Source of the DNA: Candidatus Calditenuis fumarioli
Lineage (GTDB): Archaea; Thermoproteota; Nitrososphaeria_A; Caldarchaeales; Calditenuaceae
Assembly: GCA_030059665.1 (NCBI GenBank)
Contig: JANVYR010000001.1
Coordinates: 288,001 to 352,000, forward strand
Reading direction: 5' to 3'
Length of the DNA: 64,000 nt
Each line of letters begins with the position of its first letter. The first letter of the stretch is position 1. Positions 19,034-48,609 of this stretch are shown here, in pieces. The notes under the pieces were generated by a model that saw only the letters and a program-made list of their open reading frames with translations, was not told the origin of the DNA and did no database searches. Made by a program: the position numbers and the translations under genes.

Positions 19034-19139
19034 CGGGTCCAGCTCGCGTGCGGCAGTTAGTAAATTTTGGTCGACGGCTTGACCAGGGAATGGGGCGTCG
19101 TTACTGGAACCGTGGATCTACGCTCATCACCTGCTCCTG

Positions 19140-19402
19140 CTTCCACGCATCGGTTAAAGCAAAGGAGTGATGTCAAAAGGCAACTGAGGTAATACCATTT
19201 TTCAGCAACTGATAAGTCCTTAGAATTGAGTTGATATTGAGATTCAATTTTTCGCGCATCGAGCAGCATATATAAATCACCTATATGAATTTTGCTGAAG
19301 AAGACCCCCATCATCTTAAAATAGAGGTCGAAAAATTCATCCGTGAGAAGGGGTGGCGCGCGGGAAGCCGCGCGGAGCCTGAAATTCCCGAAATCGGGAA
19401 CG
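19140..19402 (+). promoter_or_regulatory. AT-rich CRISPR leader and divergent aminotransferase promoter region
   Basis: Non-coding and AT-rich, with TATATAAA near 19270. A perfect inverted repeat TTCCCGA-AA-TCGGGAA (19385-19400) lies 2 nt before repeat 1. Confidence 0.6.
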
Positions 19403-19920
19403 GTGATCCCGAGAGAGGGAGTTGAAAGCCCAGCCCTCCATGTGTTGGTACACCCTCCAGAATGCGCTGTGATCCCGAGAGAGGGAGTTGAAAGGACTGT
19501 CCTTGAAAATTATCTTGACATCTCGAATTGTCGGTGATCCCGAGAGAGGGAGTTGAAAGCCAGCCCGAGGGACCGGATGAGGTCCCCCACCTCCCCGGGG
19601 TCGAGTGATCCCGAGAGAGGGAGTTGAAAGAGCAGCATCCTCGGGCTCGTCGCGAACAGCTCGTACTCCTGGAGTGATCCCGAGAAAGGGAGTTGAAAGA
19701 TGGATCTGCGTCTCTGTTGAGCTCCATGAACCTCATTATCAGGGGTGATCCCGAGAGAGGGAATTGAAAGTATCCTGAAGGCCACCGCCTGTTCGTCCCG
19801 CGCTCTCGGTTTATTGTTTAGTGATCCCGTGAGAGGGAGTTGAAAGTCCGCCGTAGGCAGCCGTCCGGCGGTGTTCCTCACGAACCGCCCGTTCGTAATC
19901 CCGAGAGGGGGAGTTGAAAG
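19403..19920 (+). CRISPR. CRISPR array: 8 repeats of 26 bp (GTGATCCCGAGAGAGGGAGTTGAAAG) and 7 spacers of 39-50 nt
   Basis: Repeats start at 19403, 19469, 19534, 19605, 19674, 19745, 19821 and 19895. Variants accumulate toward the right (leader-distal) end. Repeats end in GAAAG and contain a TCCC/GGGA stem. Confidence 0.97.
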
Positions 19921-19985
19921 GTCCGACCAGCGCCGTGCGAAGGGCGACGAGGTCCTTATAGCCCGTCTCTGCGACGGTCTGATGG

Positions 19986-20252
19986 TTGAGGCAGGCGAAG
20001 TACCTGGTCGAGGTCCGCGCTGCCAAGAGGGCCTTCAGGGTCGACAAAGAGCTCGAGGAGGCTCTGAAGGGAACCCTCAGCTCGAAGATGATCTCCAGGA
20101 TGAAGCGGGAGTACGTCGAGTGCCCGGTCGCCGGCAAGGAGGTGGCCTTCCTCCTCTGCTACAGCTGCGTCTCCTTCATCCGAAGGGTATCGGGCGTCGT
20201 CCACTGCGAGGGCGTCGAGTTCCGCATCAAATCGAAGGGGGAGGGCGGTTGA
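19986..20252 (+). CDS. Small Cys-rich conserved hypothetical protein
   Basis: Motif CP-x10-CxxC-x12-C (ECPVAGKEVAFLLCYSCVSFIRRVSGVVHC); stop overlaps the next start. Confidence 0.7.
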   Translation: MRQAKYLVEVRAAKRAFRVDKELEEALKGTLSSKMISRMKREYVECPVAGKEVAFLLCYSCVSFIRRVSGVVHCEGVEFRIKSKGEGG

Positions 20253-20506
20253 ACCAGGGCCTGATGATCTCGGGGATCCTCGTGGCGCTCTTCGGCTTCA
20301 TCATCGCGGTGATGGGTTTCCTGATGTTCGCGCTCTTCGTGCCGTTGGGGGTGCTGATGTTCATCGCTGGCATCTACGCCAAGCCCTCCGAACCCGTCGT
20401 GCCCAGCGACCCGAGCAAGAAGTTCTGCTGGTACTGCATGGAGGAGATAGGGAAGGAGGAGAAGGTGTGCCCGTACTGCGGACTGGAGCAGCTGGACCGA
20501 GAGTGA
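20249..20506 (+). CDS. Small two-TM membrane protein with C-terminal zinc ribbon
   Basis: TTG start at 20249, two hydrophobic helices, CWYC...CPYC. Confidence 0.7.
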   Translation: MNQGLMISGILVALFGFIIAVMGFLMFALFVPLGVLMFIAGIYAKPSEPVVPSDPSKKFCWYCMEEIGKEEKVCPYCGLEQLDRE

Positions 20507-20580
20507 GTTGTGGTCCGCCTGACCCACGTGCCCTCACCGACCGGCCCGGAGGCCTGCTCGGGCACGCTTAGGCGCGGACC
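20506..20580 (-). ncRNA. H/ACA box pseudouridylation guide RNA hairpin
   Basis: Minus strand reads GGUCCGC-GCCUAAG-CGUGCCC-GA...UGA-GGGCACG-UGGGUCAG-GCGGACC-ACA. This gives a lower stem, a pocket, an upper stem with GA/UGA K-turn elements, and ACA directly after. Confidence 0.8.
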
Positions 20581-21065
20581 GTTCTTCGGTTGTGCTCCGG
20601 CTCCTTAAGGAGCTTTACGCCAGACCGAGGGAGTCTTGAAGAGTCGTACCCAAAGACCATCAGGTCGCGTCCCCAACACCTCCCCGCACGGCTAAGCGGT
20701 CCTACGGACCAGAGACCCACCCGTCCCCCACTTCGTTGGCTCCGCTGAAAGGCCGCCGTTACGGATCCCGCATCTCCGTTACGCGATCCGGCATCGGGCT
20801 CATTGGTTTTCAACTGAATCAATTGGCAGTACAATGTTTGACAACTGCCCATCAATAGCGCTCACCAGAATTTACATTGCTTGAAACCACGTGAAATTTC
20901 CGATCAATCATCTAGCAAATTGCTGAACATTTGGAATCCGCAAAGAATAAGACAGTCCTTCAGCAAGATTTATGAGCTGCTCGGTTTTATGGCGACGACA
21001 AGATTGACGATGACCGGAATTGCAACTCAATTCGTCAATGAGGGTGGGGGTGAGTTGGCAAAGTG

Positions 21066-35173: not shown

Positions 35174-35866
35174 TCACCTCCTCAGGACAGCCCTCTCTAG
35201 CGCGCAGAGGGCCCTCGATACCGCCACCCAGGCATCTAGCCTCTGGTCGTGGAGCTTCACCCTGACGTCGGCGGCGCTCATCACCTCCTCGCTGAAGTCT
35301 CCGTGGGGGAAGCAACCGACCACCAGTATCACTCCGCCGTCTCCCATCAACTCCGCCAGCCTCTCTTCCCTCAGCTCCTCGCCCGACTCGTGAAGGAGCA
35401 CCACCGGATTCCTCCCCAGCGCCTCAAGGACCTCCCGGAAGCTCCTCCGCTCCACCTCGAGCAGGACCTTCCCCTCCTCGGTCACGACCCTGCCGTCCCT
35501 GAAGAGGGCCTCCATCAGCCCCTTGAACCGGTCGTAGACCCGCGGCAACCGGGTCGAGGGGTCTATCCTGATCCAGTAGCCCGAGATCGTGTGGACGTGG
35601 ACCGACATCAGGCCTGCGAGGTTCAGCGGAGACCCGAGGGCCTCGAGCAGTGTGACGTGGACTATGTCCGGCCTGCCCCTCTTCTCCGCATTAGAGAGCT
35701 TCCTCATCGCCCTGTGGTGGTACGAAGAGTCGAGGAGCGTCCACCTCGGAGACTTCCCCCGCCTGCGGCAGTAGGCCCTGACGTCGGGCTCCGACCAGAG
35801 CTCCGGAGGTATCAGCTCGAGCGACGCCTCCGCCAGCAGGAGCTTGACCGGTGGAACGGCAGCCAC
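35174..35866 (-). CDS. nep1: rRNA small subunit pseudouridine methyltransferase Nep1
   Basis: LLDSSYH, GRPDIVHVTLL, RLPRVYDRFKGL, VGCFPHGDF. Confidence 0.92.
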   Translation of the reverse strand: MAAVPPVKLLLAEASLELIPPELWSEPDVRAYCRRRGKSPRWTLLDSSYHHRAMRKLSNAEKRGRPDIVHVTLLEALGSPLNLAGLMSVHVHTISGYWIRIDPSTRLPRVYDRFKGLMEALFRDGRVVTEEGKVLLEVERRSFREVLEALGRNPVVLLHESGEELREERLAELMGDGGVILVVGCFPHGDFSEEVMSAADVRVKLHDQRLDAWVAVSRALCALERAVLRR

Positions 35867-36007
35867 CCCACGTTTCAGAGAGTTCAGGCACCGCTAAAAC
35901 GGAACCGCCGTGAGCTTGCACGTCCAGCTCAGCACGTCAAAAACCTCTCATCGGAACCCTTTGGCCCTCAAACCCACGGGTAAAAAGGCGCTGATGAAGG
36001 TGATCTT

Positions 36008-36109
36008 GACGGGAAGGTTCTGGCCCTGATCGAGCTGCCGATCGCGGGGCTGATGTCGGAGGAACCGGTGGAGGTGAACAGTCTCTTCGAGTATCTAGAG
36101 ATGACGTAG
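36008..36109 (+). pseudogene. Adenine deaminase C-terminal fragment
   Basis: DGKVLALIELPIAGLMSEEP matches the adenine deaminase C-terminal LPIAGLMS motif; the rest of the gene is absent. Confidence 0.6.
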
Positions 36110-36139
36110 CGTGTGTTCTTGTAAAGGGGAGGGTAGTCT

Positions 36140-36356
36140 ATGGCTCGCTCTAGGAGACCTTACGTAATCCTGAACACGGCCATGACGTTGGATGGCAAGA
36201 TAGCAACTAGGACGGGCGACTCGGAGATCTCTTGTATGGACGATAAAATCGAATTGCATAAGTTAAGGGCCTCGACTGACGCCGTAATGGTCGGGATAAA
36301 CACGGTCTTGGTTGATAACCCTCGCCTCTCGGTCAGGTATGTCGAGGGTAACCCAA
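36140..36356 (+). pseudogene. Truncated RibD-C/DHFR-like pyrimidine reductase
   Basis: RPYVILNTAMTLDGKIAT and LRASTDAVMVGINTVLVDNPRL; breaks off after about 72 codons. Confidence 0.8.
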
Positions 36357-36612
36357 CACGGTCTCGGTTTACGACGTCACAGGTACGGTTGACAGCATCG
36401 TCATCTCCAAGTTCAAGAACAGGCAGGAGGTGAGCAACTTCACCAAGAGGCTCCTGAGCATCCCGTACGTCGAGCGGACCAACACCCACGTCGTCCTGAC
36501 GGTCGTGAAGGAGGACCCGAGGGGGCCGCTGCTGAAGGAGCTGGGGAGGGCCCTGCCGGGAAGGGAGAGGATGCCGGAGGAGCCGAGGGAGGAGGTGGGA
36601 GGTTACGGGTAA
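36352..36612 (+). pseudogene. Lrp/AsnC regulator, C-terminal domain only (HTH lost)
   Basis: PNTVSVYDVTGTVDSIVISKFKNRQEVSNFTKRLLSIPYVERTNTHVVL, preceded by an in-frame stop at 36349-36351. Confidence 0.75.
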
Positions 36613-36830
36613 GGAAGCCTAGATGGATGAAGGTAGAGATAGTCCAAAGGCATCCATTACAACCTATTCCCGAACGCGGCGTGAACCTGAGACGAAGGAG
36701 CGCCAGCAGGAGAAGAAAAGGGTGTAGAACTTGAGGAATTAGGTCATATGGCAACTCAAGAAAGGAAGAAAAGGGAGGGGTTGGATCGTTTGTTTCGTCA
36801 GCTTCTGGCGTCCTCGGTCGTTTGGGGCCC

Positions 36831-36937
36831 GGGCCGGGGTTAAAATTGAGTGGGTTACGCCTCGCCGCCTCGCGGCGGGGGCGGTTTTACCCGTGAAGTA
36901 CCCGAACCCGGGTCTCCCCCGCCGAGGCGCCCGGCCC
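36831..36937 (-). ncRNA. Structured non-coding end downstream of the IS110-like gene (bridge-RNA-like candidate)
   Basis: Nested perfect stems (plus-strand coordinates): GGGCCGGG 36831-38 with CCCGGCCC 36930-37, CGCCTCG 36858-64 with CGAGGCG 36923-29, GCGGGGG 36875-81 with CCCCCGC 36916-22. Strand inferred from the gene. Confidence 0.4.
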
Positions 36938-37800
36938 TAGCCCTGTCGCTGAGGAGCTGGTATGCCCTCGGACCTCTCGTGGGTCTCCTGCCTAAATCTG
37001 AACATCAGCCATATCCTGAACGCTGTCGCCTCTTCGTCCCGCTGTGTCGGTTTATCGTTTATCAGCGCCATCGTCAATCTGTTCAATGCCTTTCTCGCCA
37101 CGTGGCTGAACTTCTTGTTCTTTTTCGACTTCCTGCTTTTTCTGAACAGTCCCAAATATGCCCGAACTTTCGCGAAAGGCTTCCTGAAGTCAACGTATGT
37201 CAGCAACTCAGCCAATGCTTCCCTTGCCATCAAATGGCCTTCGCCTGAAATCCCCAACTCCTCAGCAATGTAATCGAAATACGGATACCTTCTCCGAGCC
37301 TCCTCTACGATAACCTCGGCTAACATCCCCTTCTCCATCTGCGCCTGCCTCACCAGTCTTCTAAGACTCTCTTGTGCCACCGGAGATGCCGCCTTAAGCT
37401 GGTTCTCCAGCTGCTGCTTCGTCCTTTCGATCGACCTGTAGGTCGAGATCAACCTCCGCATCTCTAGGAAATTTTCGTCTACCCTTCGGTACCATTTGCA
37501 CTCAATGGTCATCATCGCTTTGATGTCGCTCTTCGTGGACTTAGGCAATCCCATCCTCTCTCTCATCTGCTTGACCAGACGCAATCGCCGAAGATAGTAG
37601 ACCTCCACTCCCTTCCTCAGTAATTGTATGAAGGAGTCCGTAAGCATCACCGGTATCGTATCGACATATACCCGATCGCCAGGTCCTGCTGGGATTTCCG
37701 CCGGATCATCGATATGTTTGAAGCTCTTGCCGTCAGTTGTATAGGTTATCCTAAATCCGCTTTCATCCTTCTTCCTGTGTACGTCGCAATAGAACCTCAT
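36937..37800 (-). CDS. IS110-family-like recombinase/transposase (divergent)
   Basis: N-terminal acidic RuvC-like pattern (FYCDVH, VYVDT, GVEVYYL, KSTKSDIKAM), central coiled coil, HhH-like ELGISG, and KVRAYLGLFRKS resembling the IS110 AYxGLxP...S motif. Confidence 0.55.
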   Translation of the reverse strand: MRFYCDVHRKKDESGFRITYTTDGKSFKHIDDPAEIPAGPGDRVYVDTIPVMLTDSFIQLLRKGVEVYYLRRLRLVKQMRERMGLPKSTKSDIKAMMTIECKWYRRVDENFLEMRRLISTYRSIERTKQQLENQLKAASPVAQESLRRLVRQAQMEKGMLAEVIVEEARRRYPYFDYIAEELGISGEGHLMAREALAELLTYVDFRKPFAKVRAYLGLFRKSRKSKKNKKFSHVARKALNRLTMALINDKPTQRDEEATAFRIWLMFRFRQETHERSEGIPAPQRQG

Positions 37801-38099
37801 CTCACATCACCGTATTTCAGCAACGTAAACAGGAGCACCAATACCAGCATCACCTGTAGTAGCGTCAGAAGAACCATTGCTGGCGTTAGCGGTAGCCTCG
37901 TCGAGACTACGGCCACCATTAGCGCCATAGCTATCGTCCTTTTCTTCCAGAGCGACCAGGGCCATCGAGGCCTCCTCTCCCCCCTGACCTCGAGGATCTC
38001 CAGGACCCTCGGGGCGGGATACTTCCCAACCCCGAGGACCCTTGGAGGTGGGAGGGATAGGGGAGATACCTCGATGACCCTCGGTTCGTTGTCGGTCAT
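37797..38099 (-). CDS. Hypothetical membrane protein
   Basis: Two C-terminal hydrophobic segments; ATGA overlap with the IS110-like gene. Confidence 0.5.
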   Translation of the reverse strand: MTDNEPRVIEVSPLSLPPPRVLGVGKYPAPRVLEILEVRGERRPRWPWSLWKKRTIAMALMVAVVSTRLPLTPAMVLLTLLQVMLVLVLLFTLLKYGDVR

Positions 38100-38110
38100 C
38101 GCCGATCACC

Positions 38111-38458
38111 TCAATCTATCGGTATTGGGGGGATGGGTTCGTCCCCCCAATACATCTGGTCTTCGTCCTCTACCCACCCTTCCTCGTCTTCCTCCCATTC
38201 CTCTTCGAATTCTTCCTCCTCCCATTCATCCTCGAAGTCCTCTTCCTCCTCCCACTCCTCTTCTTCCCATTCCGCCTTGAAGGTCGTCTGTTTCGTTTCC
38301 TCGTAGCTGATGTATGTCAATTGGATATACCTCGTCCTGAATCTGCGCCTCCTGGGCTTTGTCCTCAGCATTGTAGAGCATAGCGGGCATCGAACGTCGT
38401 CTGTTTCGATGAACTGTTGGCATCTGCTGCAGAATCGGCGGTTGTCGCCGTATCTCAA
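38111..38458 (-). CDS. Zn-ribbon protein with acidic Trp-rich tail
   Basis: TTG at 38458 after a purine-rich SD; CSRC...CPLC then EWEEEEWEEEEDFEDEWEEEEFEEEW. Confidence 0.65.
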   Translation of the reverse strand: MRYGDNRRFCSRCQQFIETDDVRCPLCSTMLRTKPRRRRFRTRYIQLTYISYEETKQTTFKAEWEEEEWEEEEDFEDEWEEEEFEEEWEEDEEGWVEDEDQMYWGDEPIPPIPID

Positions 38459-38872
38459 AGCTCTTCCCCCTCCCCTGATGGCTAACCCCCCGTCATAGGC
38501 CCCCGGGCCAGGGACCGTGATGGGTGGGGCATGGGACCCAGTCGTCGTTCGTCCGGGGAGCCCAACCCCCGGCGGGTCGGCTCGTCGGTCGTCCACAACC
38601 CTGCCTGCACCCGAGGGGACGCCGCCCTTCCCCCCGGGGAGGCTCCTCCTACCGGGCATGTTCCCACCCGGAGAAGAGACGCCCCCACCGGGACCCCGAG
38701 GAGTGGAAACTCCCCGGGGCGTTCGACAGGCGAATCCCCGGGAATGCTCCCGGGGTTGGACTCTCCCCTCGGGACCCCCAACCCGAGCCACCAGGCCCGG
38801 GCTGGGGGCCCGAGCCCGGTGGCTTAAAAAATGATCAAACGGGTTGGGGGTTGTCGTCGTTCTGTCGGTAAA

Positions 38873-38959
38873 TCAGCCGAGGCTTCTGATGAGCAGCGGC
38901 AACAGTAGTGCCATCACCAGTAGTATTATCGGAGGTAGCAGGTCTATCGGCCACATCAT
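38873..38959 (-). CDS. 28-aa hydrophobic micropeptide
   Basis: MMWPIDLLPPIILLVMALLLPLLIRSLG*, a single TM-like helix below the ORF-track cutoff. Confidence 0.4.
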   Translation of the reverse strand: MMWPIDLLPPIILLVMALLLPLLIRSLG

Positions 38960-39450
38960 CCCTTGCTTCCTAACGACCGCCCGCAGTTGTTTACCGCATC
39001 TCGAACAGCGTAGCGTCTTGGTACCATCTTTGCACTCCTCGCGGGCCTCTTCCCGCTCCTCCCGCTCCTCGATCTCCCGGGCCCCTGCCCGAGTGTCATG
39101 ACCGCTTCATCCCGGAGGTCGCCGCCCGAAACCTACGGCATAGGGGCCTTTCGGGCCTTCCCTCCTTCATGACACTCCCCGGGCTCCTCCGGGATTACCT
39201 GACTACGGGTTCCCCGGCGCAAGCCGGGTCCCGTCCCTCCCGGAGGCCCCCACCTCCCCCTCAGGGGCAAACCCCCGGGGGAGGAAAGGAGCCTCCCCCG
39301 GAGGCCGCCCTCAAGGGGTCATTGATGGGGAAGCAAAAAATGGAGGGAAATGGTTTACGGGAGGAGCGGAGTCGTGGGATTATCGAGGATCATCTGAGGT
39401 CGTCGGACGGTGCGTGGCCTCGTCGCCCTACCTCGTCCCCATCCCCGGGC

Positions 39451-39711
39451 TCATATGAACCCGAGGAGGAGCGGGACGACGAGGTGGGTGAACACCAACG
39501 CCAGAACGCCGCCTATCGCCAGCCTGATTCCGTACCCCTCCTGGCGGAAACCGATCGCCAGGAGGAGTCCGCCGAGGATCATCGCTATACCAAGCGCGTC
39601 GATGATCGGCGTCGCCACCTCGAACAGCGTCAACATCACCTGTTTGATGACTTGAGCAACCTTGCTGCCCACCTCGCTGGCCGAGATCAGAGCCGTGACC
39701 AGGGAGATCAT
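39451..39711 (-). CDS. Small two-helix membrane protein (VirB2/TrbC pilin-like or viral capsid-like)
   Basis: N-terminal leader-like segment, then PIIDALGIAMILGGLLLAIG-FRQEGYGIR-LAIGGVLALVFTHLVVPLLLGFI. Confidence 0.6.
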   Translation of the reverse strand: MISLVTALISASEVGSKVAQVIKQVMLTLFEVATPIIDALGIAMILGGLLLAIGFRQEGYGIRLAIGGVLALVFTHLVVPLLLGFI

Positions 39712-40002
39712 CGGTCCCCCACCCCCACCCCTCGCCACCGCACGGTCCAGGGGCCTTCTTCGCCTCTCCCGCGTGCCGGACCACGCGGGGTCGGGCTCCG
39801 GCCCCCTTCACTCCGTGGGCTGGCTCGGGGCACGGTAATCGCCCCGACTCCCTTCGACGGGAGGACAAGTAGGGGAAAGAAAGGGGGTGAGGTTGCGCTT
39901 GCATCGATCATCAGCTGGAGTCTTCATCCTCGGCTTTGAGCGTCGGTGGCCACCGGCCCGGACTCTCCCGGTCGGAGGGACGCGGGCTTGGCGAGCTGGG
40001 GG

Positions 40003-41592
40003 TTATTCGCCCCAGCCTGCGACCGTCGTGTCCCTCCTTGTCAGTGGGGTCACCTTCATTACCCACCCCGGCCTAGACCACCCTGAGCGGGTGGGGTGGT
40101 CTGGCTCGGGGCGGGTTCGGGTGTCCCCGCCTCCGCGCCAAGCCTGTTCTTCATCCCCACCCTCTCGGGGTCCAGGCCGGGGCTTCGTCTTCGAGTATTG
40201 CAGCGGATTCCTGATCCCCTTAGGACACAGCTTACCGTCCTCTATGCAGAGTCCGTGGGCCTTCATCGTCTGGCAAGAGGGCGGTTTGTATTTTATCCGA
40301 GATCCCCTCTCGCCGGCGATATGCTCTATCTGGTACCTGGCTATCTTCTCGTCGAAGTCAGGCCTCTCCTGTAGCATCGCCAATATGTCCTCCTTGGAGT
40401 ACCCACGGTTTATCATGAAGGCCGTTATCGAGAACAGCTCCGCATGCGATGCCTCAGAAATCCTCGCCCTTATCGCCTTCATGCACGGCGGCCAGTCCTC
40501 GCTCGTCGTCTCCGTCGTCTCAACGTACCGGCTTCTTACCCTTATCAGCTCTTTGAGTGTGTCCTCCGCGGCCTCACGGAGAACGTCGGGTAGTAAATTA
40601 ATCTTCGGCCTTACTCCCTCGAATCTGGCGAACGCCTCGGCGATCCTCTCCCTCGCCAGCCGGGCCAGCTCCGCCTTCGTGAGATGAACATAGCCTCTGT
40701 GCACCGTCCGGTTTACGAGGCGCCACTCGGGGTTCCGCAAAAGGTTCCTCGCGGCCGTCAAGTAGTCAGCCAGCGGAACCTTGTAGTCGTAGCCCTCGAT
40801 CTCCGAGGGCTCGGCGTCCAGTTTCGTCCTCCTTATCAGTTCCCTGAACGTCTCCTCGTCCTCGGCCAGCATCTGCCGCTCTATTCGGGAGGCCTCGGCG
40901 AGCGCCCAGCGCTTCAGCAACCAATCGTCGTTAATAGCTAAGCAGATCACCTTTGCGACGATGAAGCTCAGCGCCTCGGTAAGGGGATCGTCCAGAGACT
41001 GGACGATCCCCCGCTCCCCGCGTTGTAACGCGTCGATTAACCTCTCTTTTGCTCTTGTCGCTGTCGCCTCGTCGACGTCGGCGACGTTCCAGGCTTCGAT
41101 TAATTGGCGGTATTCGTCCAAATATTGGAATTTGCTGAGCGTTTGAAGGGTGATAACTAGACCCCTCGGTTTAACCGTCTCCTGCCGCGCTTCCTTTTCT
41201 TCCTTTTGCGCTACCTCTTCGGACTTCGACGCTAACAGCTTTCGTCTCAAAATCTCGATCGCCTCGTCGTCCAGCTCCGCTAGGACCTGCTCGACCTTCT
41301 GCCTTCTCATCTCTTCAAACTCCTCCTCGTTCGGTTCTCTCGGCCTATCCCATCGATACATGGGATAGGCCCGTTTGAAGCTCTCCAGAAGCTCGTCGTA
41401 GGTCAGCGACGGGTCGTAGTGACCCAACCAGTCGATCTCTAGTGGGTCGGCGCGGGGGTTGAACTCCATGAAACGCCTTATCAATGCCCTCAGCGTTACG
41501 TAGTCCGACTTGCCGTACCTGTCGTAGATCTGTCTGTGGACTCTCTTCGTGACCTCCTCAAGGATTTCCTCATCGACCGTCATCCGAACCAC
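40003..41592 (-). CDS. PriL-like primase large subunit with extra N-terminal domain
   Basis: WALAEASR, WRLVNRTVHRGYVHL, WPPCMKAI, PDFDEKIARYQIEHIAG, YKPPSCQTMKAHGLC, NPLQY. Confidence 0.85.
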   Translation of the reverse strand: MVRMTVDEEILEEVTKRVHRQIYDRYGKSDYVTLRALIRRFMEFNPRADPLEIDWLGHYDPSLTYDELLESFKRAYPMYRWDRPREPNEEEFEEMRRQKVEQVLAELDDEAIEILRRKLLASKSEEVAQKEEKEARQETVKPRGLVITLQTLSKFQYLDEYRQLIEAWNVADVDEATATRAKERLIDALQRGERGIVQSLDDPLTEALSFIVAKVICLAINDDWLLKRWALAEASRIERQMLAEDEETFRELIRRTKLDAEPSEIEGYDYKVPLADYLTAARNLLRNPEWRLVNRTVHRGYVHLTKAELARLARERIAEAFARFEGVRPKINLLPDVLREAAEDTLKELIRVRSRYVETTETTSEDWPPCMKAIRARISEASHAELFSITAFMINRGYSKEDILAMLQERPDFDEKIARYQIEHIAGERGSRIKYKPPSCQTMKAHGLCIEDGKLCPKGIRNPLQYSKTKPRPGPREGGDEEQAWRGGGDTRTRPEPDHPTRSGWSRPGWVMKVTPLTRRDTTVAGWGE

Positions 41593-41734
41593 CTCTCGAG
41601 GAGCATCGGTACGTCAGTAACCGCTACCGTCCCCTCCACCCTCTCCCGGAACCCTCGCGGCCCCTCCTCCGGGCTCTCGCCCGGGCCCCTCGCCCAAAGG
41701 GCGGGGTATGTACCCACCACGGGGTAAATCGGGG

Positions 41735-43420
41735 CTATCGCGGCAGGAGAGGGAGGAGCTTCCGGTAGCGATCATCCACGAGGAGAACCAGAGCGTTATC
41801 TTCGGGACCCCTGATCGCCCTCCCGGCGGCCTGAACCGCGGAGTAGACCGCAGGGAGGACGAGGCCGTGGAGCCTCGCAGAATCCTCGTCCCCTAACAGC
41901 TCCTTCAGTCTCCTCAGCAGCTTCTCCCTCCTCGGCGTGGGTGCGGCGAAAGGCACCCCTATCAGCAGCACGAGCTCAGCAGATAGGTCAATCCCTTCGG
42001 CGAGCCTGCCGTTGAAGACGCTGACCAGCGCTTTGGAGTCCATCTCGAAGGCTCTGGCGACCGCTTCAACCTCCTCCTGCGTCATACCTTGCTTCTCGGC
42101 CAGGACCTCTGCCTCGGCCCTTTTCAGCACCTCCTCGAGGACCTCGTGGCTCGGCAGGAAGACGAGGGACCTCCTCCCTGCTACGAGCTTCAGCAGCCAG
42201 GCGGCGTCCGAGTAGAGCTTCTCGTCCCGTTTCTCGAACTTCGTCGTCAAACCCTTCACCACGGCCGCGCTCAGGTTGTCTCCGAATGGCCATCCGGCCC
42301 TCAGCAACGTCATCTCCCGGCCTACCAGCCTTTCCAGAAGCTCCGCGTTGACCGTCGCGCTCATCGTGACCGTCGCCCTCCACTTGTCGTAGACGGCCTC
42401 GAGCACTTCTTTGGGGTCAGCCATAGCCTCCAGCCTCAGGGACCTCCCCTCCCTCACCAGTAGGGGTCTGGAGCCCCCGAGGCTCGCCTTGAAGTCGGCT
42501 ACCGTAAGCACATGGCTCGCCGGAGCGAGGTTCTCCCTAAGCTTAAGCTCCTGTATCTCGAAGCCCGCCTCTCGGAGCTCCGTGTAAGACGGTAATACGT
42601 CATCGACCTCCGCTTCGCCGTCTCCGGGAAGCAATGACTCGTAGTGGTTGGCGGCCCTCTCAAGCTCTGATGAGATCTCGTTAAACCCGTACTTCCTTGC
42701 CTCCCTTGCCGCCCGCTTCAGCGTCCTCAGACTGATGGAGTCCTTGACCATCGACAGCGCCTCACTGACAACGTGCTGTGCCTCGTCCAGAACCAGTATC
42801 GTCCTCTCCTTCGACCAGCGCCATTTGGCCAGAAGCCATCCGAGGAATCCGAGTTGCCTGTGGGTAGCGACCAACCCCCGTGCGGTCGGCATCGAGATAG
42901 TGAGTACCTCATAGGGGCACGTCAACGTCCTCCGTCCCAAGTCCTTGAGTTCGCTGACCGTCATCGGCCTCCCCACCGCCCGAGGTTTCCCGGGCCAGTA
43001 GGGGCATCTGTGGGCGTATCTGGTCGCCCTGCACGCGGCGTTGAACCGTCTCTGATCTATTTGGGCTATTACCTCGTGAAGACACAGTAGCTTCCTCCCG
43101 AAGAGCGGCAGCATGCCGGTTTCCAGCGAGACATGTCTAACTTGCGAAGCAGTCCTCGTAAGCCAAAGCACCCTCAGATTGTTCTCCTCCGCGTACTTGG
43201 CTACGGCGGCGTAGACCGCGGCGGTCTTACCCAGACCGGTGGGCGCCTCGACGACCACGTCCCTGTTGCCGTCGCTCAGCAGTTCGTAGAGCCTGTTGGC
43301 GAGGTCGGCTTGGTATTTCCTCGTCGTCGGATGCGGGAAGTGCCTCTTCAACGCAGCCGTCAGCTGGACGTCCTCTTCGAGGTCAACCACCCTGACCTTC
43401 CCCGGCTGGGGGATAGACAC
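41735..43420 (-). CDS. XPD/Rad3/DinG-like SF2 helicase
   Basis: VEAPTGLGKT, four-Cys Fe-S region, LDEAQH, MSAT, VFLPS, AEGIDL, QAAGRAIR. Confidence 0.88.
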   Translation of the reverse strand: MSIPQPGKVRVVDLEEDVQLTAALKRHFPHPTTRKYQADLANRLYELLSDGNRDVVVEAPTGLGKTAAVYAAVAKYAEENNLRVLWLTRTASQVRHVSLETGMLPLFGRKLLCLHEVIAQIDQRRFNAACRATRYAHRCPYWPGKPRAVGRPMTVSELKDLGRRTLTCPYEVLTISMPTARGLVATHRQLGFLGWLLAKWRWSKERTILVLDEAQHVVSEALSMVKDSISLRTLKRAAREARKYGFNEISSELERAANHYESLLPGDGEAEVDDVLPSYTELREAGFEIQELKLRENLAPASHVLTVADFKASLGGSRPLLVREGRSLRLEAMADPKEVLEAVYDKWRATVTMSATVNAELLERLVGREMTLLRAGWPFGDNLSAAVVKGLTTKFEKRDEKLYSDAAWLLKLVAGRRSLVFLPSHEVLEEVLKRAEAEVLAEKQGMTQEEVEAVARAFEMDSKALVSVFNGRLAEGIDLSAELVLLIGVPFAAPTPRREKLLRRLKELLGDEDSARLHGLVLPAVYSAVQAAGRAIRGPEDNALVLLVDDRYRKLLPLLPR

Positions 43421-43509
43421 AGGGCAGGGGCCTTAGCCCCTGCTAGCCCACTCGGCGCTCCCCTCCAAAGGAGGGTGCGTTTATCCCGCCAGCCTATGGG
43501 GGTCTCACC

Positions 43510-43752
43510 TCACAGGTATCCGAAAATCTTTAGCAGTATCGCGCTGATCAACGTCGTCACCCACAGCCAGAAATAGCGATCTATCCGCGACTCGAGCCTT
43601 TCGAACCTCCTGTCTATGTTCTCCAGTATCTTCCTGTGCTCCTCGACGATCACCTCGAGCTTTGCGATCCTCTCAGCCAACTCCATCACCATTCGTGTAA
43701 GCTCCTCCGGCGTTAATGGGTCTCCGGCCTGATTTATCTCTTCTGACCTCAC
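43510..43752 (-). CDS. Small coiled-coil protein with C-terminal TM helix
   Basis: Heptad ENIDRRFERLESRIDRY then FWLWVTTLISAILLKIF, an architecture common in archaeal MGEs. Start overlaps the upstream stop. Confidence 0.65.
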   Translation of the reverse strand: MRSEEINQAGDPLTPEELTRMVMELAERIAKLEVIVEEHRKILENIDRRFERLESRIDRYFWLWVTTLISAILLKIFGYL

Positions 43753-44480
43753 CTGCCATCACCCCTGTGAGACTCGTAGTGCTTCTTCAGCTCCTCCTCA
43801 GAGGGGCAGAGGAGGCCGCAGCTGGGGCAGAAGTAACCCTGTCCCGTGCTGACGACCTCCCCCACCCCCCGGAGGAATGTCCACTCCCATCTGCATGACG
43901 CCGGATGCTTCTCAGCGACGTGCGCCGTTGCTTCAGCTAGGGTCCCGAACCCTGCCCCGCAGTAGGGGCAGAGCCAGGACCCGTCCTTGTTCTCGAAGAA
44001 CGTCTTCAGCTCCCCCACCCAGGCCACCTTGACCCGGGCGGGGGTGGTCTCGTCAACGTCGGCCGGGTGCCTCCCTCCCAGCCAGCCCCGTCTTATGACG
44101 ACGGGGCGGGCCGAAAGGGAGTACCTCTCCAGAACGTCGGCACACCCTTTGCAGAGGGGCCCTGCGTATGAGGGCAGGGCCGCGGGAGCCCCGCACCTCG
44201 CGCAGAACCCCTCTACCCTTTTCGATTCGGCGGGTACCTCATCGACCTTTGGCTTGCACTCCGCCTGCTTCAGCTTCAGGGCCTCCGTGAGCTTGGCCGA
44301 CGCTCCGCAGCGTGTGCATCGTAGCATGCTGATCGCCTCGCCCGGCACAACCACTTCTTCGACCTCGTGCTCCCCGAGGGGGAAGGTCCTGTGCCTCTCT
44401 CCCTCAGGGGTTTCGACTTGTTCCTTTTGCACCTTCGTCTCCTCTTCCTCGAACCTTTCCTCTTCCTCCTCGAGCCCCAA
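43749..44480 (-). CDS. Multi-zinc-finger protein (CxxC ribbons and C2H2 fingers)
   Basis: CTRC, CARC, CKGC, CPYC..HVAEKH, CPSC..LKKHYESH. The frame stays open about 59 codons upstream of the TTG. Confidence 0.7.
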   Translation of the reverse strand: MGLEEEEERFEEEETKVQKEQVETPEGERHRTFPLGEHEVEEVVVPGEAISMLRCTRCGASAKLTEALKLKQAECKPKVDEVPAESKRVEGFCARCGAPAALPSYAGPLCKGCADVLERYSLSARPVVIRRGWLGGRHPADVDETTPARVKVAWVGELKTFFENKDGSWLCPYCGAGFGTLAEATAHVAEKHPASCRWEWTFLRGVGEVVSTGQGYFCPSCGLLCPSEEELKKHYESHRGDGR

Positions 44481-44587
44481 CCCCTCGACCCCCTGCTCAG
44501 GGGCCTCGGAGAGGGGCTCCTCGGACTCGACGTCCTCCTCCAGTCTCAGCTCGACCCTCCCGGGGCCTGCCTCCGACCGCCGCTCGA

Positions 44588-46276
44588 TTACACGAAAACC
44601 CCTCCCCCTCTCGCGGCGATCAGGGCAGACCCTTTCGGGGTCTCCTCTTCGACCTTCTCAGCCTCCTCAACAGTCACCTCCTCTCCCTCTTCGGTCTCCT
44701 CCTCGACAGTCATCTCAGCCCCCTCCTCGGCTTTCCCCCACGGAAGGCGCCACGGGATTGGCCACGTCCCCGTTGCCGTGCGGACCAATAGTAGTGACGC
44801 CGTCCCGCGGCTGGGGGCCTCGGAGGGAGTGGTTGGAGTGCTGACATCGGCTTCCTCTTCGAAGTCTTCGTCTTCCTCCAGCTTCAGCTCCACGGAGCCT
44901 GTAGGCTCCGGGGGCTGGGCGGGCTCCCCACCTTTTTCAGCCTCCTCGACCCGCCCCTCGACCTCAACCCCCTCCGGCAGGGAGGGGGTGGGGGTCTCTG
45001 GAGCGGACACCTCTCCCTCCTCGACCTCCTCACCTTGCTCCTCAGCCCTTACTTCCTCAGTTACTGTTGGCTTCGTGAGCATAAGCTTGATCGGCTTAGG
45101 TTTCGGTAATCGTCTTAGATGGAGTCTGCGGTGATCGTAGATGATAAGCTTCGCCTTAATCAGCTTCTTCCACATCTTCTCCGCCTCCTCGAGGCTCGCC
45201 CTGAAGAGGAACCTCTCTAGGACGAACCTCGGGAGGCTGTCGGGGGAAGTGACGACGATAGCTCCCACGTCTTTCGTTATTGCTATCGGCATCAGCTCGG
45301 GATCGGGGCATATTAGAACCACCCCGACCCCAAAACCTCTCAACTCATAGACGATCCGCTCTCCTACCGTCGGTGGTTCGTCAGGAGTTCTCGGCCTGAT
45401 GTAGTTCTGCGCCTCCTCAGCAACTATCAACTCTCCCAGCCTCGCCTTTAGCCCCCCTTTCAGCGCGTCCTTGTACTTCCTCACTAGGATCGCGATCGCA
45501 TATGCAGACTTCAGGTATACTGAGGGGAGTTGGCTGAGGTCGTAGACGACGACGGAGTCGCTTCCTCTGACGTTCACCGCAGGCCTCTCCTCGTCTATCA
45601 GCAACACGTAAAGCCTCCGGATAAGCGCCAGGTACATGTTGGCTTCAGCGTATCTCCTTTCGATGCTCGCGAGGTCGGCGGCCCTCGTCAGCTCGCGTAT
45701 TACTTCGGACGTCGTCGGAATCCCCTTCTCGTAGAGTTTGACCATGGTCCTCAGCAGAAGCGTCGCGCTCGCCGGCGACACCTCCGCCACGTCTTTGCTC
45801 ATCTCGCGTATCATCTCCACGGCGTAAAGCGCCTTCTCCTCCGCAGTTTCTCCGGGGACGTCCCAGATATTGATCTTCCTTACCACAGACGCTCCCTTGA
45901 GGTAGGAAACGTACTCGCCCTTCCAGTCGATGACCGTCATTTTGATCCCCTTTTTGACCGCCTTAGCAATTACCTCCTTCGCAACCGTGGTCTTCCCCGA
46001 CCCCGTCGGCCCCAGCACGACCATGTGTCGTGCCAAGGCCGACAGGGGCACCACCCCCAGCACCCTCCTAGCCCTCAATGCCCGGAGGAAGAGGAGGGCA
46101 GGGGTGATGGTCGTTATCGCCGCGATCGCTGCGATTGTTGCGATTGGTACTACATTGACCCTCGGCAGTAGCTCGGGTACCCCTTGGACGATTCCGTACT
46201 TCGCCCAGTCCCTCATACCCTCCTGTACCACGTGCAGGAGGGCAAGGGGAACGTCTATCTCGTAGACGGCGACCAC
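44588..46276 (-). CDS. Membrane-anchored HerA/VirB4/VirD4-like ATPase with acidic tail
   Basis: N-terminal hydrophobic helix, HMVVLGPTGSGKT, IDWKGEY, AEEAQNY, ELRGFGVGVVL; about 130 aa of E/P-rich tail. Confidence 0.8.
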   Translation of the reverse strand: MVAVYEIDVPLALLHVVQEGMRDWAKYGIVQGVPELLPRVNVVPIATIAAIAAITTITPALLFLRALRARRVLGVVPLSALARHMVVLGPTGSGKTTVAKEVIAKAVKKGIKMTVIDWKGEYVSYLKGASVVRKINIWDVPGETAEEKALYAVEMIREMSKDVAEVSPASATLLLRTMVKLYEKGIPTTSEVIRELTRAADLASIERRYAEANMYLALIRRLYVLLIDEERPAVNVRGSDSVVVYDLSQLPSVYLKSAYAIAILVRKYKDALKGGLKARLGELIVAEEAQNYIRPRTPDEPPTVGERIVYELRGFGVGVVLICPDPELMPIAITKDVGAIVVTSPDSLPRFVLERFLFRASLEEAEKMWKKLIKAKLIIYDHRRLHLRRLPKPKPIKLMLTKPTVTEEVRAEEQGEEVEEGEVSAPETPTPSLPEGVEVEGRVEEAEKGGEPAQPPEPTGSVELKLEEDEDFEEEADVSTPTTPSEAPSRGTASLLLVRTATGTWPIPWRLPWGKAEEGAEMTVEEETEEGEEVTVEEAEKVEEETPKGSALIAARGGGVFV

Positions 46277-46366
46277 CTCCGTTACATACCCAGCCTCGGC
46301 TACTACAGGATACCGGAAATCGACGTCCCGCTCGATTACCTGCTATCGAGGATAAAGGGTAGCGGG

Positions 46367-46969
46367 ATGGATACGGAGAGCATCGACCACGTCTATGATT
46401 ATTTCGGCAACAGGAGGATCCTGATCGAGGTCCCGGAGGAGGAGATAGAGAGGGAGATGGAGCAGAACAGGCTCAGGAAAGAATGGGAAGCCAAGATCGC
46501 CGAAAGACTCCAGAAGTGCACGCTCCTCTGGCAAAGCGATAAGGTGCGGGCCTACCTGCTCGACGACGAGGAGCTCGCCGGGGTGTTTTTAGATGCGGTA
46601 AGCGTTCAGATGGTGAAGGATCTGGGCAGACTCATCGTTATCGCCGGGCCATATTTTGACGAGCCATACAGGGTCGCCTCCCTGAGCATCCATATGCCGA
46701 CCAAGGTCCTCGCCGCGAAATCTTTGCTTGAGAGGAGAGGAGTTCCGGGAACTCTCACGGTAAAGAACGAGGGGGTGCCGGGACCGAAATACCTGATCAG
46801 GCTTACCTTTAGACACCTCGACCCGCTCGGATACTGCACGCTCTACCTCGATCCGGACAAGAAATGCGTAGAGATGGCACCCAAGGCGAGGGTCATCTAC
46901 GAGGACGGGAAGCTCGTGCTGATAGACGACGAAGCGGTGGAGGAGCTGATGAGGGAGAGGGGAGCTTAG
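46367..46969 (+). CDS. Hypothetical protein
   Basis: Globular-looking distal part of ORF 46184-46969; no family recognised. Confidence 0.55.
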   Translation: MDTESIDHVYDYFGNRRILIEVPEEEIEREMEQNRLRKEWEAKIAERLQKCTLLWQSDKVRAYLLDDEELAGVFLDAVSVQMVKDLGRLIVIAGPYFDEPYRVASLSIHMPTKVLAAKSLLERRGVPGTLTVKNEGVPGPKYLIRLTFRHLDPLGYCTLYLDPDKKCVEMAPKARVIYEDGKLVLIDDEAVEELMRERGA

Positions 46970-46979
46970 GCCCAGCCCG

Positions 46980-47008
46980 TATTTATTCCTCGTTTCAGTT
47001 TTTATTTC
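46980..47008 (+). terminator. T-rich tract (possible terminator and/or promoter of the PCNA-like gene)
   Basis: ATTTATTCCTCGTTTCAGTTTTTATTT directly after stop 46969. Confidence 0.3.
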
Positions 47009-47812
47009 GTGATGATCCGCCTACCTGTCCAGTACTGGAGATTCTTGATCAGGTCATTTCTCGACGAAGGCGCAGACCGCGTCTTTTATGATCAGGGCAG
47101 GCTCCAATCCCTCAGCGTAGACAGAGTCTCCCTGATCAGAGCTTCTATCCACGACCATGACTGTGGCCGTATGGAACTCGACCTCGACAAGCCGAACGAA
47201 CTGCTGAAGAAGGCCCGTGTTAAAAGAGGCTATATGACGGTAAGGAGGATCGGCGAAGGTAAGGAAGAGGAGGAGGTAGAGGTAAGGATAACGGGAGACC
47301 AATGCCTGACGACAACGTTCAAATATAAGAGAGAGGTCGGGTCATCTTTCAATCCCGACGTCACGAGGTTGAACTTTACAGACGGATTCAGGATAGGAGC
47401 TGAGGCTTTAGCCCGCACATGCGAGGGCTTGAAGGACTGTGATATCATGTTTTTATATGTGGGGTCTAAGCTGTTTGTGGGAGGCAGACTGTTTGAAAGC
47501 CAACTAAGGTTCACCACGATCCCCACCGTTGCAGGTAACGGCTCGTTCTCGGCATTTGAGCCAAGCAGGTTGTGCAGGTTCTTGAGGAGGATAAGCGAGT
47601 TCTCCAGCGTCCTAACCGTCAGGCTCAAGACGGACGGCCCCATCTACATCCACGCTCCGACACCGTATTTCGACGTCGAGTTTATGCAGGCCCCGCGTGC
47701 CATCGCTTCCGACGACGTCAAGCTCCTGAAGGAGGTTCTAATTCAGGAAGGGGAGGCTCAGGCTATACCCGTCCTTGAGCAGTTGGTGGAGGCTAAACCA
47801 CAGACCGGATGA
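47009..47812 (+). CDS. Divergent PCNA-like sliding clamp
   Basis: Clamp-sized. LQSLSVDRVSLIRASI resembles the PCNA DxSRVxL motif; C-terminal LTVRLKTDGPIYI...VEFMQAPR. Confidence 0.6.
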   Translation: MMIRLPVQYWRFLIRSFLDEGADRVFYDQGRLQSLSVDRVSLIRASIHDHDCGRMELDLDKPNELLKKARVKRGYMTVRRIGEGKEEEEVEVRITGDQCLTTTFKYKREVGSSFNPDVTRLNFTDGFRIGAEALARTCEGLKDCDIMFLYVGSKLFVGGRLFESQLRFTTIPTVAGNGSFSAFEPSRLCRFLRRISEFSSVLTVRLKTDGPIYIHAPTPYFDVEFMQAPRAIASDDVKLLKEVLIQEGEAQAIPVLEQLVEAKPQTG

Positions 47813-47973
47813 TGGGTTTTTACAGGCTCAGGGTTCGCATGGATCTGATCGGAGAGGCCCGGGACTCACCCGTCGCACCCGGAACGGCAGGAAACGGTCA
47901 AGTCTATGACCAATCTCAAAAATGTTTACCGGGTGAGGAAGGATGAGGGGCTTCAGGACTTGGATCCGATTGA

Positions 47974-48180
47974 AACGAGAACGGGTGCCTCCTCGACCCC
48001 TTCTGCGGAAGCGCCACCATCCCCATCGAGACAGCGCTCTACGCGATGCGGGTTCCGCCAAACGCCTACAGGCGGAGGGAGGAGATGCTGGTCTTCCGGC
48101 TCAAATTCATCGAGCAGGAGGCCCTTGAGGAGGCGTTGGCAAGGCTTAGGGTAAAATTGAGGTCGTCGCGACCCCTCCCG
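47974..48180 (+). pseudogene. Internal fragment of a Trm14/RlmL-type SAM methyltransferase
   Basis: LLDPFCGSATIPIETALYAMRVPP after an in-frame stop at 47971-73; no N- or C-terminus. Confidence 0.65.
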
Positions 48181-48609
48181 ATGGACCTGCTCGAGCTGAG
48201 GCCGAGGCTGGTGAGGCTCGACCAGCTGAGGGAGCACGAGCAGCACATCCCAGAGCACCTGGAGGAGCTGCTTCAGGAGATCCTCAGGGACGGGGTGCTG
48301 AAGAGGCCGATACTCGTGGACGAGAGGACGATGATCATCATCGACGGCCACCACAGGTACAACTGCATGAAGCGCCTCGGCAAGAGGTACATCCCGGCCT
48401 ACCTCATCGACTACATGAGGGAGGAGATCGTGGTGGAGCCCTGGGACGGGAAACCGCCGGTCACGAAGGAGGACGTGATCAGGGCCGGTCTTACGGGGAT
48501 GAGGCTCCCGCCCAAGTCCTCGAAGCACATGGTCAGGATAGGGGGAGAGCTCCATCACGTGACGTACATCGAGAGGGAGAACCCGACCCCGCTGGACCAG
48601 ATACCCTGA
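48181..48609 (+). CDS. ParB/Srx N-terminal domain protein
   Basis: LREHE, RPILVD, IIDGHHR, PPKSSKH. Likely start is ATG 48181. Confidence 0.8.
   Translation: MDLLELRPRLVRLDQLREHEQHIPEHLEELLQEILRDGVLKRPILVDERTMIIIDGHHRYNCMKRLGKRYIPAYLIDYMREEIVVEPWDGKPPVTKEDVIRAGLTGMRLPPKSSKHMVRIGGELHHVTYIERENPTPLDQIP

Follow-up and report, generated by a model that had tools for sequence, protein, structure and literature searches.

A strain-variable 12-kb insertion in Candidatus Calditenuis fumarioli, apparently placed by an RNA-guided element

The window analyzed here is a 64,000-nucleotide (nt) stretch of the genome of Candidatus Calditenuis fumarioli (Caldarchaeales; G000:C1:288001-352000; 1.57 Mb in 3 contigs, 91% complete). 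It holds a strain-variable insert of 12,171 bp (35978-48148) with genes g1 to g11 and, next to g1, a candidate guide RNA. The junctions and the enzyme-RNA end of the insert are laid out as follows (positions are those of the window).

35978..35985, left copy of the 8-bp repeat GGGTAAAA, which together with 35975-35977 makes the left half-site CACGGGTAAAA
36811..36943, minus strand, candidate guide RNA scaffold, starting at the g1 stop codon (six-copy comparison)
36937..37800, minus strand, g1, 287 amino acids (aa), RuvC-like domain, coiled coil and Nop-like helical domain (IS110/TasR fold; AF2 and Foldseek)
48149..48161, right copy of GGGTAAAA plus right half-site TAAAATTGAG (48152-48161), in the TATA-box region of the SerK/ParB-like gene that starts at 48181

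The block is a mobile insertion. Hot-spring metagenome contigs from four studies join 35977 straight to 48149, with flanks ~99% identical to those of the window, and in two sister genomes of the same genus (G005, G002) the spacing from the Nep1 gene to the SerK/ParB-like gene is ~160 bp, free of any insert. The first-pass annotation had proposed a mobile element at 36700-47975 and had suggested looking for empty sites and circular junctions; the mobility stands and the empty site is there, but the metagenome joint sets the limits at 35978-48148, which takes in host-gene fragments at both ends. Eight letters at the joint, GGGTAAAA, fit both sides and occur in the window only at 35978 and 48149, while the 11-mer CACGGGTAAAA occurs there only at 35975. 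GC content is 0.592 in the insert versus 0.635 outside. The empty allele coexists with the filled one in the same hot springs, as judged from contigs; it is the only other allele seen, and no intermediate forms are found among the metagenome contigs.

The ~130-nt scaffold beside g1 is ordered as outer stem, loop 36885-36900, inner hairpin, loop 36840-36856 and outer stem. Across six copies the stems are invariant, the two stretches flanking the inner hairpin are hypervariable and one closing pair covaries. In the window, TAAAATTGAG lies in the loop at 36840-36856 and CACGGGTAAAA, as its reverse complement, in the loop at 36885-36900; either word is found just once more in the 1.57 Mb, the 11-mer at 35975, which is the left junction, and the 10-mer at 48152, which is the right junction. 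The junctions were set independently by the empty-site contigs and not from the loop words, and the chance of both matches is estimated to be well below 1e-6. Combined, the loop words read CACGGG-TAAAA-TTGAG, which is the TATA region of the downstream SerK/ParB-like gene, whose promoter is kept. Because the two variable loops beside g1 fit the insert as a whole, one loop at each junction, placement appears to be RNA-guided, as had been proposed: the insert appears to sit at a site spelled by the RNA loops, and the gene set would thus have been placed by an RNA-guided element. An Rfam scan of 35500-48500 (E≤1) gave only chance-level matches, and folding the RNA as a single sequence gave z values of about -1.6 to -1.9, which are uninformative at this GC content.

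The loop-to-flank relation recurs in other copies. The block ends 36811-36943 (beside the g1 stop) and 47719-47964 are found at five to seven other loci, on either side of a ~1.3 kb unit whose protein (340-360 aa, here called TnpX) is a g1 homolog (hhalign probability 95.5%, E 1.4e-8; 30% identical). The loops of short copy A match its own flanks over 10+10 nt, at -777 and +1392, and copy E has a 14-nt match at -283; in the own-versus-cross matrix of loops and flanks the best values lie on the diagonal. At the locus of copy A in the sister species, the intergenic DNA is too diverged and the right flank lies on other contigs. Three divergent paralogs (32% identical, with a different scaffold) each have a genome-unique 10-11-mer whose reverse complement is found 280-390 nt downstream. 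In Candidatus Caldarchaeum subterraneum (G024), seven copies have a third scaffold in common, and three of them (L081, L084, L085) have both half-sites matched, at 9/9, 9/9 and 9/10 nt, with cores TTAA, TAAAT and TAA; none of the 42 cross pairs has both. The relation is therefore seen across three RNA scaffolds. The RNA of G021 and G030 has the same architecture. As a side observation, the composite guide of these two genomes has an uninterrupted 16-nt match (G021:C1:65658-65686, L070; G030:C22, L073) in the TATA region that precedes a gene for a uL22-like ribosomal protein; the match may be a target or a regulatory site.

The protein encoded by g1 is invisible to family searches: Pfam (E≤0.1), PHROG and NCBIfam gave no match, a PDB sequence search with a profile of 34 g1 homologs found no IS110 chain, and a six-frame search of the whole genome found no PF02371. 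Its alignment-based AF2 model (pLDDT 91, pTM 0.84) comprises an RNase-H/RuvC fold (1-107), a coiled coil (108-170) and a helical domain (174-276), and its only significant Foldseek matches are ISCro4, TasR and IS621, followed by TasH. The top three have E-values of 6e-6 to 5e-4 and TM-scores of 0.54-0.59, with ISCro4 and IS621 aligned over the full length and the TasR structure 9mty at 6.4e-6 and 0.59. Five acidic residues (D5, D46, E65, D91, E108) are invariant among the 34 g1-family sequences; the position of the fourth Asp of the DEDD set is K/A in the g1 family and D-x-x-D in TnpX. The open reading frame (ORF) described as IS110-like is thus so by modeled IS110/TasR fold, but not by sequence, and it has no conserved catalytic serine. 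The reported ATGA overlap between the g2 stop and the g1 start is exact (37797-37800).

We found ~300 g1 homologs, every one annotated as hypothetical and many on contigs of 1-2 kb. The g1 profile has matches in 27 of the 76 genomes of the order, up to 32 per genome and many of them broken, and none in six same-genus relatives. Most of the genes stand alone, as ~2 kb units present in several copies. Being multi-copy, patchy and often broken, the family has a transposon-like distribution. Two divergent g1-type units of the present genome, paralogs P1 and P2 (G000:C1:757.7 kb and C1:627.1 kb), lie ~200 nt upstream of tRNA genes, one of which apparently contains an intron.

The remainder of the insert consists of the following genes and non-coding parts.

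35986..36614, patchwork of gene fragments that originate elsewhere (sequence matches)
36611..36810, minus strand, left non-coding end ("LE outer"), with a ~140 bp part (36611-36753) that several genera carry in multiple copies
37797..38099, minus strand, g2, 100 aa, C-terminal transmembrane segment, no family match
38111..38791, minus strand, g3, Zn-ribbon protein with acidic tail, true start probably near 38458 (domain scan)
39451..39738, minus strand, g4, 95 aa, two transmembrane segments, possible VirB2-like pilin (language-model lead)
40003..41592, minus strand, g5, PriL paralog extended by ~150 aa at the N-terminus (PF04104)
41735..43420, minus strand, g6, XPD/DinG-type helicase (Helicase_C_2 5e-21, DEAD_2)
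43510..43752, minus strand, g7, 80 aa, coiled coil and C-terminal transmembrane segment (domain and transmembrane scans)
43749..44480, minus strand, g8, multi-zinc-finger protein (C2H2; domain scan)
44588..46276, minus strand, g9, N-terminally membrane-anchored HerA-clade (CedD/CedB/VirB4-like) ATPase (DUF87 1.7e-11)
46184..46969, plus strand, g10, 261 aa, fold not assigned (Pfam, PHROG and NCBIfam scans, language model)
47009..47812, plus strand, g11, PCNA-like clamp paralog (language model and Foldseek)
47813..47964, right non-coding end ("RE"), also present in short-element copy D
47965..48148, piece of a gene for a UPF0020-type methyltransferase, 97% identical to C1:738187-738002

Domain and transmembrane scans bear out most of the gene content described in the first-pass annotation, namely the PriL-like, XPD/DinG, membrane-anchored HerA/VirB4-like, Zn-finger and small membrane genes. 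For g5, PF04104 is well above threshold (9e-28, 97.8 bits versus a cutoff of 22.4), with four Cys seen in the C-terminal domain, and NCBIfam PriL (2.5e-57) is below its cutoff, so we take g5 to be a paralog; the host PriL is located elsewhere (C1:~829 kb). The best NCBIfam match of g9 is CedD, a DNA-import ATPase of the Sulfolobales (2e-23, 82.8 bits versus a cutoff of 600). The PCNA-like assignment of g11 is favored by language-model look-alikes, which are PCNA/clamp clusters at 0.94, and by Foldseek, in which the best 50 matches are all PCNA (E ~1e-7, ~245 columns, TM-score ~0.35), but g11 has no Pfam match and its model is poor (pLDDT 47), albeit with four beta-alpha-beta-beta-beta motifs. 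For the pilin-like g4, the look-alikes are type IV secretion system pilin families at 0.81-0.86, a lead only and nothing beyond that; g4 accompanies the ATPase in all related loci. Also as described, polymerase, PriS, MCM, Rep and integrase domains are absent from the scanned block ORFs of at least 75 aa, and the genome has no match to PF00589 (tyrosine recombinases, including XerA-type), PF00239 not having been searched genome-wide. No CedA/VirB6-like channel was identified in the block. By these likenesses, the cargo may be a minimal Ced/Ted-like DNA-transfer apparatus, joined by paralogs of a helicase, a primase accessory subunit and a clamp for which the host would supply the catalytic partners.

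Other parts of the window merit brief mention. The region 38459-39450 is ~1 kb of GC-rich DNA with no convincing ORF, across which metagenome variants show the joints 38260->39202 and 39100->39236. A ~90-bp piece (38180-38274) that is conserved in many genomes was considered as a tRNA and rejected, as it is acidic low-complexity coding sequence; a tRNA scan found none in the window. A second low-GC stretch (0.54-0.58) lies at 19000-21000.

Much of the cargo is found in relatives. Genes g4, g9, g8, (g7), g6 and g5 are collinear in G021, G030, G024, G061, G017 and G012, and the module is present, sometimes broken, in 13 of the 76 genomes. Co-occurrence with the IS110-like gene is seen in G021 and G030 only, where a g1 homolog ends the module at the same end, and fails in G024, G061 and G012, which have the module without an adjacent g1; linkage of g1 and module is therefore not obligatory. 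The g10-g11 pair, with g10 as a fragment, occurs alone in another metagenome-assembled genome (MAG; L088); module and pair being found separately, the cargo is modular. The "right end" of the short copies is the last ~95 bp of g11, located beside every TnpX start, which indicates that the short units descend from, or have recombined with, a cargo-bearing form. A related-locus search with the ATPase gave a near-identical match of 2.5 kb only, on the 8.3 kb contig L014 (SIRV01000001.1) of an "Actinobacteria" MAG bin. This contig carries window positions 44560-47067 at 98.6% followed by unrelated high-GC sequence, and is likely mis-binned or chimeric, or else stems from another context.

The fragments between the junctions and the element ends come from elsewhere. 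On the left are an adenine-deaminase-like piece (36005-36077, a 73-mer 100% identical to C1:368240), an N-terminal fragment of RibD (36140-36375; the sole RibD_C match genome-wide, truncated) and the 3' end of an Lrp/AsnC gene (36351-36614, 98% to C1:631462). Filler pieces meet at microhomologies (AGGTGA; ACCCAACACGGTCTC). The anatomy is the same on the left side of copy A (G000:C1:231472-232248) and in copy E on C2, where the gap from half-site to scaffold is filled with pieces of 46-270 bp copied from at least five other loci at 79-99% identity. 

Several side observations concern these same ends. The left junction at 35975-36003 (ACGGGTAAAA + AGGCGCT..GATGAAGGT) resembles the Lrp|LE junction at 36603-36638 (ACGGGTAAGG + AAGCCTAGATGGATGAAGGT), and may go back to an earlier insertion whose junction has travelled with the element. 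The native DNA 3' of Lrp (TTACGGGTAAGG|TGAGG) is also like the present target. The ~140 bp segment 36611-36753 is 74-82% conserved in G015 (five copies), G024 (three) and G021 (two), as well as in G030 and G040; it occurs three times in the genome of the window, once inverted, and may be a small mobile unit or an RNA. At G000:C1:736808-738187, perhaps by coincidence, the host PCNA gene adjoins the same methyltransferase gene of which a piece stands at the g11 end of the insert. A recurring ACGG at fragment junctions (9 in 700 bp versus ~3 expected under uniform composition) was dismissed as unconvincing at this GC content.

We lean, with a good deal of reserve, toward reading 35978-48148 as one member, with cargo, of an unannotated family of guide-RNA-directed elements in the archaeal order Caldarchaeales that work in the manner of IS1111/IS110. 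The family enzyme (~280-360 aa) would be g1 here, TnpX in the short copies and a large number of homologs elsewhere in the order, with a putative structured RNA just 3' of the gene in which two internal-loop strands carry ~10-nt guides. To the left of the insertion point one predicted guide has the sequence of the top strand, and to the right the second would pair with the top strand; both would include a common A/T-rich core that is duplicated on insertion; the predicted target DNA of g1/TnpX plus RNA carries CACGGGTAAAATTGAG. The RNA would be made and bound by g1, g1 would catalyze insertion, and ~10 kb of cargo (a VirB2-like protein, a CedD/HerA-like ATPase, Zn-finger proteins, an XPD helicase, and PriL and PCNA paralogs, as predicted above) would move as one with g1 and the RNA. 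Between the junctions and the element ends, the patchwork of host-gene pieces would be filler from error-prone repair or from mis-chosen ends.

A number of results weigh against this reading. No circular-junction joint was seen in the metagenome data, which cover contigs only. The element ends do not abut the target, being separated from it by foreign fragments of 628 bp and 184 bp, and a search of these ends found no subterminal inverted repeats. There is one guide unit only, with no donor-matching words of at least 10 nt that would mark a donor-binding loop. The IS110 family domains PF01548 and PF02371 are absent from both g1 (Pfam E≤0.1) and TnpX (Pfam E≤1). IS110 enzymes need a catalytic serine on a beta-hairpin (10.1101/2024.06.21.599552); the C-terminal domain of the g1 model is all-helical, with a disordered loop (215-231) and no beta-hairpin, and no Ser, Thr or Tyr of this domain is invariant across the 34 sequences, in which the loop alignment is uncertain. 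Among the short copies, B has an 11-nt match that is inverted, and C and D match poorly. The guides of G021 match elsewhere rather than at the island flanks, with exact 13-mers at C1:65674 and C2:584424 and, near the island, only an 11/13 match 650 bp downstream. The modules without an adjacent g1 in G024, G061 and G012 point the same way.

Several of these points would be expected if g1 were an RNA-guided homing nuclease (TasR-like, or acting as TnpB does in IS605-like elements), which we consider rather unlikely. Such an enzyme would cut the empty allele, repair from the occupied chromosome copy would duplicate the DNA between the half-sites, cargo included, and mutated guides would cut elsewhere, where a copy would be captured by end joining. 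TasR fits the g1 model as well as IS621 does (6.4e-6, TM-score 0.59) and is itself a ~290 aa protein of RuvC, coiled coil and Nop domains with two spacers on opposite strands (PMC12045711). The single guide unit without a donor loop, the missing conserved serine alongside invariant RuvC acids, and element ends that are neither conserved nor adjacent to the junctions agree with homing as well. The microhomology-joined filler patchworks at the periphery of the window insert, copies A and E and G021 favor break repair, while the high copy numbers and the core duplications favor recombination: 20-32 family members per genome call for frequent moves to new sites, more than homing by itself would supply, and 3-8 bp core duplications flank the inserts, as in shared-core recombination. 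A tandem array of the TIGR type is also absent.

Alternatively, the insert could be a nested composite, in which a ~2 kb solo unit of g1 and RNA came first and the ATPase-XPD-PriL module and g10-g11 entered later by an unrelated route, so that g1 would explain the site but not the mobility of the cargo. Solo ~2 kb units are indeed the norm, the block is a mosaic, the module is found without nearby g1 in the three genomes named above, and g10-g11 stand alone in L088. The mean depth of the g1 piece is also below that of the module pieces, a weak point, as the flanks differ too and these depths are contig means summed over strains that we did not use as evidence of copy number. However, the only alternative allele is the fully empty site, g1 closes an overlapping same-strand gene run (ATGA), the order of module then g1 is repeated in G021 and G030, and the g11 fragment in the short copies implies that g11 already stood beside the enzyme gene in their ancestor; on balance a nested origin seems to us fairly improbable. 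Classical integration by an unrecognised integrase, with the 10-bp repeat TAAAATTGAG (36841, 48152) as attL/attR, is very hard to credit. The direct repeat is real and its right copy is a promoter element, but the empty-site joint 35977/48149 lies 860 bp left of 36841 and already contradicts this explanation, the second loop matches the other flank as a reverse complement, and the pattern repeats with different words in other copies; moreover, the block has no integrase domain and the genome no PF00589.

Most of what is known about two recent discoveries, RNA-guided recombination (IS110/IS1111, 2024) and RNA-guided cutting (TIGR-Tas, 2025), comes from bacteria and phages. A guide-RNA-directed family in the Caldarchaeales would be a natural archaeal lineage that standard annotation has overlooked entirely, with a guide-target relation that can be read straight from genomes and that shows guide diversification between copies. 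Insertion of DNA by a Nop-RuvC enzyme that lacks the IS110 serine could be tested on it directly, and it could provide a mechanism for the spread of conjugation-like genes and replisome paralogs in Aigarchaeota, here in a genome without a detectable tyrosine recombinase. Small enzymes from hyperthermophiles are also of practical interest. A bolder idea, which we hold only tentatively and with more doubt than belief, is that g1/TnpX, together with guide RNAs of a single unit, constitute a new class of compact and thermostable systems for RNA-guided DNA insertion, between TasR nucleases and IS110 bridge recombinases, which would lack a serine nucleophile and a donor-binding loop, bring >10 kb of cargo into the TATA regions of promoters and drive a DNA-transfer/replication module through an archaeal population.

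Compared with IS1111/IS110 elements that use seekRNA or bridge RNA (ISEc11, IS621; PMC11187229, PMC11208160), the present element is alike in having a structured RNA just downstream of the enzyme gene, a RuvC-like domain, coiled coil and helical C-terminal domain in the enzyme, and guides that match the target flanks. In IS1111/IS110, the seekRNA comes from the non-coding region downstream of tnp and its guides match both target strands; every IS has a target of its own, excision requires the flanks and cargo can be moved (PMC11187229). Unlike these elements, g1 does not belong to PF01548/PF02371 and has neither the conserved catalytic Ser nor the beta-hairpin, the RNA has a single guide-bearing internal loop and no donor-binding loop, and no subterminal inverted repeats were found at the ends; the host is a hyperthermophilic archaeon, the natural cargo is ~10 kb and filler lies between ends and target. 

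TIGR-TasR (PMC12045711; PDB 9mty) resembles g1 in size and domain order, with a Nop domain and an N-terminal RuvC domain with conserved acids. TasR uses two spacers on opposite DNA strands without a PAM (protospacer adjacent motif) and is linked to mobile elements, and the characterised one is from a Thermoproteota archaeon (PMC12045711). It differs in its tandem arrays of 36-nt tigRNAs, whereas here each gene has one ~130-190-nt stem-loop unit and no array, and the guides match the element's own insertion site; identity between g1 and TasR is 13-14%. The Ced/Ted systems and archaeal conjugative elements (PMC9905601, PMC11868833) share with the cargo a membrane-anchored HerA/VirB4-clade ATPase, a two-transmembrane VirB2-like candidate and helicase genes nearby, although all scores here are far below the family cutoffs and no CedA/VirB6-like channel was identified. 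Ced/Ted is a conserved host system, whereas the module described here is strain-variable, patchy (13/76 genomes) and joined with PriL, XPD and PCNA paralogs.

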